The notes: generated by a model not told the origin, from the letters alone. Counted from the first letter of the stretch, positions 1,770 through 7,592 are shown. The stretch: DNA of 7,592 bases from PVC group bacterium (GCA_022560555.1 JADFSZ010000085.1:1-7592); one strand, 5' to 3'. Translations and numbers: made by a program.

Positions 1770-1979
1770 ATGGCCGATAATTATTATCAAAAATTTGTCG
1801 GAAGAAATGCTTCATACGAATGTCCTGGTTGTCACCAGACAAATATTGTCTATCTTGGTTCTTCGATGATACAAAAAAATGAATTTGAGGACGAATGCTA
1901 TGATTGTTCCCGTAAGAACGCGCTTATAGTCAAATTTGATTCCGAAGGACGACCCACTCTTAATCTTAAGACGGATTGA
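1770..1979 (+). CDS. Small zinc-ribbon protein (69 aa, CxxC...CxxC)
   Basis: AAAGGGA at 1761-1767 precedes the ATG at 1770. Two cysteine pairs, CPGC (residues 18-21) and CYDC (43-46), are spaced as in a zinc ribbon. After the second pair comes a beta-strand-like segment, NALIVKF. No catalytic motif is visible. Confidence 0.65.
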   Translation: MADNYYQKFVGRNASYECPGCHQTNIVYLGSSMIQKNEFEDECYDCSRKNALIVKFDSEGRPTLNLKTD

Positions 1980-2070
1980 GGAGTCTGAAAAAAGACTTGA
2001 AATATAACTCAAACCTATGTAAGGTAATTTACCGTTTCTCAATAATGATTTTAACTAAAGGGAGGCTTCT

Positions 2071-2259
2071 ATGGGTGATGATAAAGTGTTAGTTGTGGTT
2101 TCCAAGCTTAAAAATTATGTTCGAGAGAAATCAGGAATGAATACATCGGGCAATGTCGCGCCGAAGCTTTCTGAAAAAGTCCGGGAACTTTGTGACCAGG
2201 CGATTGAAGTCGCGAAGGCTGATGGGCGAAAAACAGTGATGGACAGGGATTTTCAATAA
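2071..2259 (+). CDS. Bacterial histone-fold DNA-binding protein (HBb / Bd0055-like singlet histone)
   Basis: A strong SD, AAAGGGAGG (2057-2065), lies 5 nt before the ATG. The 62-aa product is MGDDKVLVVVSKLKNYVREKSGMNTSGNVAPKLSEKVRELCDQAIEVAKADGRKTVMDRDFQ. The ...AKADGRKTVM.RD... block matches the L2/alpha3 GRKT(I/V)xxxD(I/F) motif of archaeal HMf histones. As I remember it, the whole protein is colinear with Bdellovibrio bacteriovorus Bd0055 (VLVVTSKVKK...GQMNTS...AKADGRKTVMARDI). Confidence 0.85.
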   Translation: MGDDKVLVVVSKLKNYVREKSGMNTSGNVAPKLSEKVRELCDQAIEVAKADGRKTVMDRDFQ

Positions 2260-2297: not shown

Positions 2298-2364
2298 AAT
2301 CCCTCTTGCTTTATGGTTTTAGCGTGAAGAGCGTGAAAAATAAACAGCAAGAGGGATTTTTATT
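2298..2364 (+). terminator. Long hairpin plus U-tract after the histone gene; likely an intrinsic terminator or attenuator that also sequesters the downstream RBS
   Basis: A perfect 13-bp inverted repeat, AATCCCTCTTGCT (2298-2310) / AGCAAGAGGGATT (2346-2358), encloses a 35-nt loop and runs into TTTTTATT (2357-2364). The 3' arm contains GAGGGA (2351-2356), the only SD-like element before the GTG start at 2365. The loop holds a tandem AGCGTGAAG/AGCGTGAAA repeat (2321-2338). Confidence 0.5.
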
Positions 2365-3708: not shown

Positions 3709-4831
3709 GAATGAACATGATGACCGTATACTGGACCGGCTTGTCGCGTTAACGCGTGATCTGATCCTGATCCCGAGCATCCCGAGCCGTCCCGAAGATA
3801 GACGAAGATGCTATGAATTTGTACGGAATCACTTGGAGGCCATTGAAAACGTTGAAGTTTTTGAGTATGAACATCATGGAATTCCTTCTCTCGTTGCAAT
3901 GCCGGTGAATGTGCGTGAACCGGAAGTCTTGATGTGCGGCCATTTGGACGTCATCACTCATCCGGATGTGTATTCCTATCGATCGTATATCGAAGACGGA
4001 AAGATTTATGGTCCCGGAGCGGGGGATATGAAGGGCGCTCTCGCGATTATGTTGGAAATTCTTCGGGATTTTCACACCAAACATCCAGGAGTATCCCTTG
4101 GTCTTGCCGTGACAGCGGATGAAGAAACAGGCGGAAAAGCGGGTATCGGATACCTTTTTGGAAACACAAATCTTCGATGCGGGGCCGCTTTGATTCCGGA
4201 TGGAGGATCCTTAAACGAAATCACCATTGAGGAAAAGGGGATTCTACATATCAAAATACGCTGCCAAGGAAGAGCGGCACATGCCGCGCGCCCCTGGCTA
4301 GGGGATAATCCGATTGAAAAGTTGATGGATCGTCTGAGCAATTTACAAAAATATTTTTCATCATTTAAACGTGATGAAGATCATTGGTTTCCGACATGCT
4401 CTATTACCATTATCGGCACCGAGAATCAAACGATCAATAGAGTTCCTTCTAACTGTGAAGCTATTTGCGATATCCGCTTTCCTTCTCCTTTTACGATTCA
4501 GGAAATTATGGATAAAACCAGGGAGGTTTTGGGCGCCGATGTCGAAATCGAAGTTGTGATTAGCGCGGAGCCGACTCATTTATCGCCTGATCCGCTGTAT
4601 CAACAAGTCACGGAGGAGATTACAGGAGAGCCGGCCGCGCTCGTTCGAGAGCATGGGGGGAGTGATGCGCGTTTTATTTATGCGGGTGGCGTTCCGATTA
4701 TGATGTCCCGTCCTATTGTCGGGAATTTGCATGCTGAAAACGAATGGATTAATATTCAATCTATGATAAAATACTATAGAATTTACGAGAAATATTTAAC
4801 AATAAAACTCCTAAAAAAATCGAAATCTTAA
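3695..4831 (+). CDS. M20 family metallohydrolase (ArgE/DapE/acylase/carboxypeptidase-type amidohydrolase)
   Basis: M20 metal and catalytic motifs are present: HxD in LMCGHLDVITH, bridging Asp in GPGAGDMKGALA, the Glu-Glu pair in VTADEETGG, and the late HAARPWLGDNPIEK and GGSDARF blocks. The start is ambiguous. TTG 3695 (ORF track) or GTG 3701 is possible, and AGGAG at 3687-3691 gives GTG 3701 the better 9-nt spacing. Either start overlaps the ATP-grasp stop, which suggests translational coupling. Confidence 0.85.
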   Translation: MIVTENEHDDRILDRLVALTRDLILIPSIPSRPEDRRRCYEFVRNHLEAIENVEVFEYEHHGIPSLVAMPVNVREPEVLMCGHLDVITHPDVYSYRSYIEDGKIYGPGAGDMKGALAIMLEILRDFHTKHPGVSLGLAVTADEETGGKAGIGYLFGNTNLRCGAALIPDGGSLNEITIEEKGILHIKIRCQGRAAHAARPWLGDNPIEKLMDRLSNLQKYFSSFKRDEDHWFPTCSITIIGTENQTINRVPSNCEAICDIRFPSPFTIQEIMDKTREVLGADVEIEVVISAEPTHLSPDPLYQQVTEEITGEPAALVREHGGSDARFIYAGGVPIMMSRPIVGNLHAENEWINIQSMIKYYRIYEKYLTIKLLKKSKS

Positions 4832-4852
4832 AAAAGTAAAAAGGAGGGGGCA

Positions 4853-5029
4853 ATGGGACTTATCAGATTTATCGCGTGGGGATGTATGATGATAGGATTA
4901 GGCGGTTTTCTTCTGGATGCGCTTACGGGCATATCCGAAGGAATTTATCATGTGATTCCTTTTTTGCTTGTAGGAGTCGCCATGGAAGCTGTTTATCAAG
5001 AATTAAAGAAGATTCATTCAAAAATGTAA
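4853..5029 (+). CDS. Small membrane protein (58 aa, two predicted hydrophobic helices); not in the supplied ORF track
   Basis: A very strong SD, AAAGGAGGGGG (4840-4850), lies 2 nt before ATG 4853. Translation: MGLIRFIAWGCMMIGLGGFLLDALTGISEGIYHVIPFLLVGVAMEAVYQELKKIHSKM*, with TAA at 5027-5029. It has two hydrophobic segments and a basic C-terminus. It starts 21 nt after the M20 stop, so it likely belongs to the same operon. The overlapping track ORF 4876..5061 has no SD and an implausible Arg/Cys/Ser-rich product. Confidence 0.6.
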   Translation: MGLIRFIAWGCMMIGLGGFLLDALTGISEGIYHVIPFLLVGVAMEAVYQELKKIHSKM

Positions 5030-5057
5030 ATTTGATTTACACTCTCTTTCAAATTTT
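5028..5057 (+). terminator. Weak AT-rich hairpin at the end of the small membrane-protein gene (possible operon terminator)
   Basis: An 8-bp inverted repeat, AAATTTGA (5028-5035) / TCAAATTT (5049-5056), has a 13-nt loop. The stem has only one G:C pair and the trailing T-run is short, so this is marginal. Confidence 0.25.
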
Positions 5058-5242
5058 CTAAGAGATCTTAGATTATTTTGGTAGTTTGTGTATTGTGGAC
5101 TTGATGAAGCCCTTCCGTGGTGATGAGGCAGGATGCATGTTTGTTGAGTCCTGAAAAGTTGTTCCGGATCAGGAATTTTCATAAGTTATTGTTTTTGTTT
5201 CGATTAGGACTCATTCAGCAAAAAAAACTCGCCATTTCTAGT

Positions 5243-5270
5243 TCGACCGCTATAATAACCCTATTATAAT
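5243..5270 (+). promoter_or_regulatory. Candidate sigma70 promoter for the thioredoxin-fold gene
   Basis: -35 TCGACC (5243-5248, 4/6), 16-nt spacer, perfect -10 TATAAT (5265-5270). A second TATAAT at 5251-5256 lacks a credible -35. It lies about 35 nt upstream of ATG 5305. Confidence 0.35.
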
Positions 5271-5304
5271 TATACTGTTACAGTGAAGGTTTTTGGAGGT
5301 TGAT

Positions 5305-5922
5305 ATGAAGGCCAGAACCCCGGTTGTTCTATCTTTGGCTCTTGTCCTGCTTTTATTTGGCACCAAGCTCCTTGTGGCTGAGCCGCTTGTCGCCGAAAAG
5401 GCTCCTGATTTTACGCTGACGGATACGAACGGTGTTTCCCATACGCTTTCGGATTATCAAGGGCGCTATGTTGTCTTGGAATGGGTCAATTATGATTGCC
5501 CTTTCGTTCGTAAACATTATAAGTCGGGAAATATGCAGGACCTGCAAAAGGAGTACACGCAAAGGGAAGTTGTTTGGCTTTCCATATGTTCTTCCGCCGA
5601 AGGGAAGCAGGGCCAATTTTCCAATGCGGAAATCAAGAATCGTATGGACGAATATGACGCGTCGCCGACACATTATTTGAATGATCTAGACGGATCTGTG
5701 GGCAGGCTCTATCAAGCGAAAACGACGCCGCACATGTTTATCATAAATCCCGAGGGCATTTTGGTCTATCAGGGAGCCATTGATAATCACCCGTTTTTTT
5801 GGGAAAAAGGCCTGTTTGATGCCACGAATTATATCCGTGAAGCTTTGGATTATGCCATGAATGGCCAGTCTGTTGCCGTGACAAATACAAAGTCTTACGG
5901 GTGTTCGGTAAAATATAAATAA
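5305..5922 (+). CDS. Secreted thioredoxin-fold (redoxin / AhpC-TSA-like) protein
   Basis: GGAGG (5295-5299) lies 5 nt before ATG 5305, which I prefer to the track's TTG at 5293. The signal peptide is MKARTPVVLSLALVLLLFGTKLLVA. The thioredoxin-fold core is APDFTLTDTNGVSHTLSDYQGRYVVLEWVNYDCPFVRKHY, with a single active-site Cys (CPFV, not CxxC). It also has TPHMFIINPEGILVYQGAID and a C-terminal YGCSVKY, features I recall as typical of a widespread periplasmic redoxin family. Confidence 0.8.
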   Translation: MKARTPVVLSLALVLLLFGTKLLVAEPLVAEKAPDFTLTDTNGVSHTLSDYQGRYVVLEWVNYDCPFVRKHYKSGNMQDLQKEYTQREVVWLSICSSAEGKQGQFSNAEIKNRMDEYDASPTHYLNDLDGSVGRLYQAKTTPHMFIINPEGILVYQGAIDNHPFFWEKGLFDATNYIREALDYAMNGQSVAVTNTKSYGCSVKYK

Positions 5923-5956
5923 AGCAGAAAAGTTAGAGAGGAATGAAAGGCTAAGC

Positions 5957-6802
5957 ATGGCGCAAGAAAAAACAAATACCGATTCAACCGCACAAGCAAC
6001 GTGGTGGAGTGAATATGAATTTCTTAATCCTGGTATAAAGCTCTCTCTGAAAATGAAATTGCTCCATGAAGAAAAAACTCCTTTTCAGAAATTGGAGATT
6101 TATGATCACAAATACTTAGGTCGGGTTCTTGTTCTTGATAGTGTTGTGCAGACAACAGAAGAGGATGAATTTATATACCATGAGATGTTAACACACGTTC
6201 CGTTGATGGGGCGCAAAAACGCGGGCAAAGAAAGTTCGAGTGTTCTGATTATCGGGGGCGGAGACGGAGGAATGTTACGGGAAGTGCTCAAACATGAATG
6301 GGTAAGCCGGGCTGTGATGGTTGAGCTTGATCAGGCCGTTGTCACATCATGCGAGAAATTTCTTGGATTTAACGGGGATTACAATGACTCCCGTGTCAAA
6401 CTCATTTTTGGTGACGGAGCTGCCTATGTGGCGAGCGAAGAAGCCAAAAATAATCCCTTTGATGTGGTGATCATTGATTCGACGGATCCCATTGGTCCGG
6501 GTGAGATTCTTTTTAGCGAAGAGTTTTGTCAAAATGTTCATAATTGTTTAACCCCCACGGGAGTCATGGCGCGTCATCTTGGTGTTATGGCGTTTCAAAA
6601 AAGCGTCATGCCGGATGGACATAAAAAACTGACAAAAATTTTTGGCAACGCACAGGCTTTTCGAGCGGCTGTTCCAACCTATATCGGCGCGGATATGGTT
6701 TTTATGCTGGCAAGCAAGGATGGGCACGATTGCCGAAAGCCGTGTCTTGAATTTTCGGGTAAATATTATAATCCGGATGTTCATTCCGATTCATTCGCCT
6801 AG
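5957..6802 (+). CDS. speE: Spermidine synthase (polyamine aminopropyltransferase), with an apparently truncated C-terminal motif
   Basis: It is colinear with E. coli SpeE as I remember it: VLDSVVQTTEEDEFIYHEMLTHVPL, the signature VLIIGGGDGGMLREVLKH, DVVIIDSTDPIGPGEILF, and YYNPDVHSDSFA at the end. The TAG stop at 6800-6802 falls inside the conserved FALP motif (see findings). Confidence 0.9.
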   Translation: MAQEKTNTDSTAQATWWSEYEFLNPGIKLSLKMKLLHEEKTPFQKLEIYDHKYLGRVLVLDSVVQTTEEDEFIYHEMLTHVPLMGRKNAGKESSSVLIIGGGDGGMLREVLKHEWVSRAVMVELDQAVVTSCEKFLGFNGDYNDSRVKLIFGDGAAYVASEEAKNNPFDVVIIDSTDPIGPGEILFSEEFCQNVHNCLTPTGVMARHLGVMAFQKSVMPDGHKKLTKIFGNAQAFRAAVPTYIGADMVFMLASKDGHDCRKPCLEFSGKYYNPDVHSDSFA

Positions 6803-6835
6803 CCCACATGGTGGCAGGATAGCTTATCCAGTTAG

Positions 6836-7271
6836 GCAATACATCCGTACAAAATTATTTTTTTCAATTTCCACCTTTCAAAACCTCCTTGATATTAATC
6901 AATGATTTTATTACTCCAGATTTGTAATGTTTTGCAAATTCGAGAGCGACCATGTGAGAACTAGAAGCAAGTTGTGTATCTCCTCCAAAAAATTTTATTA
7001 TTCTCAAAATTTCCAACATCAAAAAAAAGTAATGATTTCGTCCGTAAAAAGACATGATATTCATGAATACTTGAGTAATGTGAAGCATGCAAACAGTACA
7101 TTAGAACAAGTCTCGAGAAAAATAGTATTAATACTTCAATACCTATGAAAAATATAAAGCAATAAAGTTTTTGATCATTACGATTCTTTCAAACAATTGT
7201 GAAGTTCAATCATTTATTAAAAAATAGAAGGTTATGTACAAATATTTTAAAAATGAATGTTTTGTATTTAT
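6836..7271. other. AT-rich region without a convincing gene; compositional junction between the bacterial gene array and the actin gene
   Basis: The region is visibly richer in A/T runs than 1-6835 (for example TTATTTTTTTCAATTT, CAAAAAAAAG, TTATTAAAAAATAG). The only ORFs, 6864..7088(-) and 6927..7148(+), overlap each other, lack SD motifs and have no recognisable motifs. It contains a 12-bp perfect palindrome, AGTATTAATACT (7124-7135). Confidence 0.5.
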
Positions 7272-7592
7272 TTAGAAGCATTTTCTGTGAACAATGCCAG
7301 GTCCAGATTCATCATATTCTTTCTTAGAAATCCACATTTGTTGGAAGGTTGATAAAGATGCCAAAATCGATCCACCAATCCAGACAGAGTATTTTCTTTC
7401 AGGAGGAGCAACAATTTTGATTCTCATGGTATCAGGTGCCAAAGCAACGATTTCTTTGTTCATTCTTTCGGTAATTCCTTCAAACATAGTAGTTCCACCA
7501 GACATAACAATGTTACCATACAAATCTTTTCTGATATCGACATCGCATTTCATGATGGAGGTATAAGTAGTAAGGTGAATACCATCTTGTTC
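7272..7592 (-). CDS. Actin, conventional eukaryotic type: C-terminal 106 codons plus stop, with the 5' part outside the window
   Basis: The minus-strand frame is open to the window edge. Translation: [106 protein letters not shown], with TAA at 7272-7274. It matches the canonical actin C-terminus almost residue for residue ([57 protein letters not shown]). It is far too similar to be MreB, ParM or FtsA. Confidence 0.95.

Follow-up and report, generated by a model that had tools for sequence, protein, structure and literature searches.

A bacterial histone of the HBb/Bd0055 type predicted in an uncultured PVC-group bacterium

Bd0055 (HBb) of Bdellovibrio bacteriovorus is a highly abundant, nucleoid-localised protein, and an S-K motif, a short alpha2 and an RKTV loop are diagnostic of the bacterial singlet histones (Hocher et al. 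2023, PMC10627809). In alpha3-truncated histones, alpha3 comprises 3-4 residues and alpha2 is 4-5 residues shorter than that of the nucleosomal histones; "bacterial dimers", which are HBb-like by sequence clustering, are set apart from the face-to-face (FtF) tetramers (Schwab et al. 2024, PMC11390915). The mode in which HBb binds DNA in vitro is disputed, with end-on coating (PMC10627809) on one side and HU-like bending by dimers (PMC11390915, PMC11317129) on the other. Using crystal structures and MD, Hu et al. 2024 (PMC11317129) ranked ten DNA contacts of HBb, namely N22, R57, S9, T53, T8, S24, K10, K12, K52 and K16, and D49 reinforces the RD clamp of this protein (PMC11317129). The FtF histone HLp needs R49, N53 and R55 to form tetramers, and the predicted tetrameric FtF histones conserve these residues (PMC12701072). 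The published list of hosts already contains Planctomycetota and Chlamydiota of the PVC group (PMC10627809, PMC11390915).

The locus described here lies in a stretch of 7,592 nucleotides from a PVC group bacterium (GCA_022560555.1, JADFSZ010000085.1:1-7592), which was analysed at its full length and is referred to as the window (Table 1). An initial annotation, made from the sequence, had proposed that a 62-aa ORF of this window encodes an HBb-like histone. The ORF itself stands: it is bounded by ATG and TAA, its translation is MGDDKVLVVVSKLKNYVREKSGMNTSGNVAPKLSEKVRELCDQAIEVAKADGRKTVMDRDFQ, and NCBI lists the identical protein, under the PVC group bacterium, as "hypothetical protein IID04_05270". 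The same protein is also encoded on three other contigs, one from GCA_022561295.1 and two from ENA assemblies, and the flanking genes are shared.

Table 1. Features of the 7,592-nt window. Positions are nucleotides of the window, or residues of the 62-aa product where marked aa.
Feature	Position	Strand	Description
CPXCG gene	1770-1979	+	69 aa, Cys-rich; 91 nt upstream of the histone gene
Weak promoter candidate	1997..2025	+	TTGAAA, 17-nt spacer, TAAGGT; 8/12 matches; found by eye
Shine-Dalgarno (SD) AAAGGGAGG	2057-2065	+	5 nt before ATG; duplex with generic anti-SD -11.3 kcal/mol
Histone CDS	2071..2259	+	ATG start, TAA stop; 62 aa; predicted singlet alpha3-truncated "bacterial dimer" (HBb/Bd0055) type
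Predicted alpha1	aa 10-21
Predicted L1	aa 22-28
Predicted alpha2	aa 29-50
Predicted L2	aa 51-57
Predicted alpha3	aa 58-60		one turn
Cys41 codon	2191-2193	+	mid-alpha2
Intrinsic-terminator-like element	2298..2364	+	RNA fold; putative terminator
Stem of this element	2298-2310 with 2346-2358	+	13 bp; 35-nt loop with small inner hairpin
AGAGGGA	2350-2356	+	putative SD of the ATP-grasp gene
T-tract TTTATT	2359-2364	+
GTG start of ATP-grasp gene	2365	+
speE stop TAG	6800-6802
Actin fragment	7272-7592	-	encodes the C-terminal end (106 residues) of a conventional eukaryote-type actin; E=9e-46 with Pfam Actin

Among all PDB sequences, the best phmmer matches are 8fvx and 8cmp, both HBb/Bd0055 of B. bacteriovorus (E=4e-13), and residues 5-61 align to these chains without a gap, as the initial annotation had stated for Bd0055. 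The comparison with Bd0055 and the Leptospira histones, to which that annotation had also pointed, gave 54% identity to Bd0055 by BLASTP (52 bits) and 39% to HLp of Leptospira perolatii (9qt0; 30 bits, phmmer E=7e-6). The archaeal HTkC (9f2c) is matched by phmmer at 5e-3 and the archaeal nucleosomal histones of the PDB at 0.1-1. With a profile of 42 homologues, the E-values are 1e-19 for HBb, 2e-9 for HLp, 3e-7 for HTkC and 0.02-0.07 for the archaeal nucleosomal histones (0.035 for HMfB). The curated models stay under their cut-offs. Pfam CBFD_NFYB_HMF reaches 20.3 bits where 21.4 are required (E=7e-4, only residues 33-60 covered), and NCBIfam archaea_histone (NF043032) reaches 19.7 bits where 50 are required. 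These models represent mainly archaeal and eukaryotic sequences, yet the HBb entries of the PDB are named CBFD_NFYB_HMF. The support for a histone therefore comes from the comparison with HBb and not from those HMMs, and the weak scores of the curated models account for the label "hypothetical".

The single-chain AlphaFold2 model was built on a diverse alignment of 53 sequences (A3) and has a pLDDT of 92.7 and a pTM of 0.72. An earlier AlphaFold2 run with 42 close homologues, a shallow alignment, reached a pLDDT of 67.9 and yielded nothing meaningful in Foldseek; a good model thus depends on alignment depth. Compared with the PDB by Foldseek, the 53-sequence model matches the HBb structures with TM 0.87-0.90 (rmsd 0.6-0.8 Å), HLp with TM 0.84 and HTkC with TM 0.82 (each about 1.0 Å), HMfB and HPhA with TM about 0.74 (about 2 Å), and HMfA and the Asgard HHoB with TM 0.60-0.66 (2.7-3.5 Å), and eukaryotic core histones and TAF/NF-Y proteins follow with lower TM. 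Among the matches listed, ranks 1-50 are all histones or histone-fold proteins. The predicted topology, helix-loop-helix-loop-short helix with a long central alpha2, is that of the histone-fold superfamily. The model (TM 0.90 to HBb) bears out the minimal histone fold with a short alpha3 that had been proposed, and the outcomes named beforehand as grounds for abandoning the proposal, a missing profile match or a missing fold, did not occur. Placed by its phmmer, profile and BLASTP matches, with the predicted structure in agreement, the product of 2071-2259 is a genuine bacterial histone of the HBb/Bd0055 type.

The assignment to this type is also seen in individual features. HBb is the top PDB match, and in the model an alpha2 of 22 residues is followed by the one-turn alpha3, with the chain ending at residue 62. 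S11-K12 stands at the start of alpha1 together with the basic residues K14 and R18, which are S9-K10, K12 and K16 in HBb (the numbering used here is the HBb numbering plus 2). The RKT motif of L2 and the Arg-Asp clamp with D60 are present, so that the "RKT...D" block pointed out initially is found as R53-K54-T55...D60; the clamp R51/D58 of HBb and its D49 correspond to R53/D60 and D51. Eight of the ten HBb DNA contacts are identical (N24, R59, S11, T55, S26, K12, K14 and K54), and the altered ones are K16, conservatively replaced by R18, and T8, replaced by V10. Among 53 diverse family members, S11, K12, A44, A48, R53, T55 and D60 are invariant, and K14, N24, T25, K54, V56 and R59 are at least 90% conserved.

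The HBb structures (PDB 8FVX, 8FW7, 8CMP, 9EZZ and 9F0E) and the predicted protein have in common a length of about 60 aa, the S-K motif, a short alpha2, a one-turn alpha3, the RKT loop, the RD clamp with its extra Asp, and a conserved cysteine in alpha2. They differ in the host, which is a member of the Bdellovibrionota for HBb and an uncultured PVC-group bacterium here, and in the N-terminus, which is acidic in the present protein (MGDDK). The query also sits in a tighter sub-cluster whose members are 66-82% identical across many phyla and of which HBb is a more divergent member. The cysteine in the middle of alpha2, Cys41, shows at least 90% conservation among HBb-type proteins; it is C39 in HBb and Ile in HLp, and its position is close to where the two alpha2 helices of the dimer are expected to cross. 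It may serve in packing, redox chemistry or metal binding. The main text of neither HBb paper mentions C39.

The archaeal histones HMfA and HMfB (PDB 1HTA, 1A7W and 5T5K) share the histone fold, the RKT motif of L2 and the RD clamp, with TM about 0.62-0.75, but their alpha2 is about one turn longer and their alpha3 has about 10 residues as against a single turn here. With the single-turn alpha3 and the shorter alpha2, the four-helix-bundle tetramer interface for (hyper)nucleosomes is absent from the predicted protein. Assignment to the nucleosomal (HMf/HTk) type was rejected on the seven residues that follow T55, the single-turn alpha3 and the marginal E-values (0.02-0.4). A DUF1931 pseudodimer was similarly rejected, as the protein is a singlet of 62 aa, has no match to the DUF1931 Pfam model and carries the RKT and clamp residues. 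The name "DUF1931" on PDB 9QT0 is that given by the depositors to HLp, an FtF singlet.

The ribosome-binding site had been described as very strong. Its duplex energy (Table 1) confirms that it is strong but not that it is exceptional: unk146 (-10.6 kcal/mol), a 58-aa ORF (-12.1 kcal/mol) and AhpC (-10.0 kcal/mol) have comparable SDs in the same window, and the histone SD is thus by itself no sign of exceptional expression. Among homologous histone genes strong SDs prevail: over 83 loci the median duplex energy is -9.4 kcal/mol, and 49 of the 83 reach -9 kcal/mol or lower (histone genes alone). A consensus promoter scan called nothing in the 91-nt spacer upstream of the histone gene, where the candidate noted by eye (Table 1) lies under the threshold. 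Co-transcription with the upstream CPXCG gene may be possible.

Downstream of the gene, the dedicated hairpin reported in the initial annotation is confirmed. The region 2257-2375 has an MFE of -39.2 kcal/mol (z = -5.4) that was equalled by none of 200 shuffles, and it contains the 13-bp stem of Table 1, which a simple terminator scan missed because of its long loop. The sequence 3' of the stem is TTTTTATT and includes the T-tract. The element is also found in the near-identical contigs L001 and L002, and Rfam and tRNA scans of the window, hairpin included, detected no known RNA. We infer that the hairpin and T-tract act as a terminator. The 3' arm of the hairpin holds the only SD-like motif of the downstream ATP-grasp gene, and the GTG start of that gene directly follows the T-tract; termination of the histone transcript and initiation of ATP-grasp translation would therefore overlap. 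This arrangement could permit attenuation, or occlusion of the RBS, of the ATP-grasp gene. With its strong SD and a terminator-like hairpin of its own, the histone gene appears to form a unit by itself, and both signals are compatible with high expression.

The family to which the protein belongs is large. A word-indexed search returned 1878 clusters (90% identity) that match at E<=1e-3, and the best 120 of the 1878 share 63-83% identity with the query within the part that aligns. An exhaustive family-profile search found 981 representatives (50% identity) at E<=1e-3, a set that includes doublets and N-terminally extended forms, and 487 at E<=1e-10. When one genome per GTDB species was scanned with motif seeds, at least 568 of at least 599 matching stretches were confirmed as relatives. 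Many of the top-scoring relatives (P0361-P0381 and others) are natural doublets, proteins of 120-270 aa in which two stretches match, or are extended at the N-terminus by 40-180 aa, which shows that the architectures around the HBb-type fold are considerably diverse. The titles of the 80 loci kept name Latescibacterota, Planctomycetota (among them the anammox genera Kuenenia, Scalindua and Anammoxibacter), Nitrospirota, Krumholzibacteriia, Eisenbacteria, Gemmatimonadota, Zixiibacteriota and Oligoflexia/Bdellovibrionota, along with some MAGs labelled Pseudomonadota, Gammaproteobacteria or Chromatiaceae. Homologues reside in complete or large bacterial chromosomes, for instance CP070763 of Latescibacterota and CP070758 of Gemmatimonadota. 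Their occurrence in bacterial chromosomes of many phyla indicates that the gene is bacterial and not a contaminant, and the product is an ordinary further member of the known, fairly widespread HBb family.

The neighbours of the gene had been called unusual. Most of them are ordinary metabolic genes, and they are not kept beside the homologous histones of 80 related loci. The window encodes a LolA-like protein, an M15 peptidase, an ArgE/DapE-family deacylase, a weakly RimK-like ATP-grasp ligase, a peroxiredoxin and a spermidine synthase, and the CPXCG protein upstream of the histone scores 21.7 bits with Pfam Cys_rich_CPXG against a cut-off of 25.2. When all window proteins were compared by tblastn with 80 homologous loci (about ±4 kb), no homologue of CPXCG, ATP-grasp, M20, AhpC or SpeE was found. 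All-against-all clustering of the ORFs of the 80 loci gave antisense artefacts and one lineage-restricted synteny, and nothing else. Small Cys-rich (CxxC) ORFs lie beside the histone in 3 of 81 loci and are unrelated. A functional link of the histone to the CPXCG zinc-ribbon gene, to the ATP-grasp/M20 pair or to speE was therefore rejected, since none of these is conserved in the loci compared. The pairing of CPXCG and histone recalls the ZZ-finger-histone fusions.

The lineage-restricted synteny occurs in six loci of Oligoflexia/Bacteriovoracia MAGs (L051, L061, L064, L068, L069 and L076). An FKBP-type isomerase gene lies directly upstream of the histone in these loci, and in L027 too, and a convergent gene of the topoisomerase VI subunit A/Spo11 type (TP6A_N and TOP6A Toprim, E=7e-37) lies downstream within about 3 kb in the same six. 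A bacterial-globin gene is found downstream of the histone in L051, L061, L068, L076, L027 and L052. This synteny of FKBP, topoisomerase VI A and globin genes may reflect just shared ancestry.

The actin that was listed among the neighbours is doubtful as such. NCBI labels the fragment at the right end of the contig "actin, cytoplasmic 2, partial [PVC group bacterium]", and its other best database matches, at 84-89% identity, are eukaryotic or unlabelled metagenomic sequences. The independent assembly L084 (ENA ERZ23486746) is 97.5% identical to positions 3872-6883 of the window and diverges at about 6884, roughly 80 bp past the speE stop. Beyond this point another bacterial ORF opens on the plus strand of L084, VKKYSFHDIERKW..., and resembles the N-terminus of LeuRS, whereas in the window 390 bp of DNA of 27% GC come next, followed by the actin fragment with which the contig ends. 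The divergence thus precedes the AT-rich DNA that leads to the actin. The nearby speE gene stops at a TAG where the 98%-identical homologue of L084 (P0241) has TTG and 11 more codons, and SpeE has 281 aa in the window against 292 aa in L084 and 283-296 aa in most homologues. The TAG may be a genuine nonsense variant, or it may have arisen as an error of sequencing or assembly near the point where the contigs diverge. Homologues of SpeE included no informative close relative with a taxon name, and for the host we keep the NCBI designation, PVC group bacterium. An exact look-up of the SpeE of the window gave no match, and exact-DNA scans of JGI metagenomes matched neither the speE-actin junction nor the 3' end of the actin. 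Codon usage does not discriminate the origin of the actin end.

The adjacency of the actin, which L084 does not reproduce, may stem from a chimera at the end of the contig or from an insertion or HGT specific to the strain, and the fragment is probably not a true neighbour of the histone. That it is a genuine bacterial actin is a minority reading to which we give some weight. A contig that is not chimeric is unlikely; if it were true, an uncultured deep-sea PVC bacterium would carry an HBb-type histone and, about 5 kb away, a conventional eukaryote-type actin gained by horizontal transfer, and one bacterium would combine a histone-fold chromatin protein with a true actin.

With regard to function, it is highly probable that the product, as a histone of the HBb/Bd0055 family, serves its uncultured PVC-group host as a nucleoid-associated protein without sequence specificity. 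We infer its DNA binding, dimerisation, abundance and role in vivo from its homology to HBb, the mechanism following the crystal structures and simulations of HBb. Two chains would form a head-to-tail homodimer through the antiparallel crossing of alpha2. The R53-D60 clamp would hold the L2 loop (R53-K54-T55), reinforced by D51, and the paired L1/L2 loops (N24, T25, S26, K54, T55 and R59) would contact DNA phosphates across minor grooves. The first turn of alpha1 (S11, K12, K14 and R18) would contact DNA phosphates as well. The outcome would be an HU-like bending of DNA or, at high density, the end-on coating of straight DNA.

Alternatively, the protein could be of the FtF type and form homotetramers that wrap DNA, like HLp and HTkC, in place of dimers that bend or coat it. 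HLp (L. perolatii; LA_2458 of L. interrogans) and HTkC (PDB 9QT0-2 and 9F2C) share with it the alpha3-truncated fold, the short alpha2 and the RD clamp, they are its next-best matches in both sequence and structure, and position 47, which corresponds to HLp R49, is Arg in many of its close homologues. Nevertheless, the residues aligned to HLp R49, N53 and R55 are V47, D51 and R53 in the present protein, so that the tetramer-interface residues V47 and D51 replace are absent, and its L2 loop reads KT where those of HLp and HTkC read TT. D51, which matches HBb D49, is invariant among 42 close homologues, and the similarity to HBb is clearly above that to HLp in bits as well as in identity. Tetramers that wrap DNA are, on this evidence, highly improbable. 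A histone fold could also be used in another role, with the protein acting as a specific regulator or with a protein partner in the manner of TAF/NF-Y and not in global chromatin organisation. Prokaryotic histone-fold proteins need not all organise genomes (Schwab et al. 2024, PMC11390915). Both the very high identity of 66-82% across many phyla and the near-invariant C41 of alpha2, which DNA binding does not explain, could reflect an additional constraint. A specialised role is quite improbable all the same, for the DNA contacts of HBb have been conserved, the 80 loci show no recurrent gene neighbour that would point to a partner, and the sole characterised member of the family is an abundant nucleoid protein. 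The tight sub-clade, with its identity of 66-82%, its spread over at least 10 phyla and its C41, could hint at a constraint that goes past binding DNA nonspecifically, for example through redox sensitivity of the dimer or dependence on an obligatory partner, or at a recent spread between phyla; we rank this reading as weaker than that of a non-chimeric contig carrying the actin.

The idea that the gene is an artefact, either a chance ORF or an archaeal or eukaryotic contaminant in a bacterial bin, is almost certainly wrong. Published work warns of contaminants among the bacterial "histones" (PMC10627809), and the right end of this very contig is possibly chimeric. Yet three further independent contigs have the gene between bacterial genes with the same flanks, its SD is bacterial, and its closest relatives are in complete or megabase-scale bacterial chromosomes, while the archaeal histones are just distant matches and the relatives at E<=1e-3 fill 1878 clusters. 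A nucleoid-associated histone of the HBb/Bd0055 family is the preferred account of the locus.

The study adds one more uncultured PVC-group lineage to the carriers of HBb-type histones. As the family was described in 2023-2024 and PVC hosts have already been published, the gain is incremental. The protein is missed by curated models and labelled "hypothetical" at NCBI, which indicates that histone genes of this kind are systematically under-annotated, and the apparent actin neighbour is a cautionary case of a possibly chimeric contig end. The core clade defined by the motif, found in at least 568 species genomes, is wider and more conserved than the single studied member suggests. The main value lies in the annotation of the gene and in added evidence that HBb-type histones are widespread and highly conserved.
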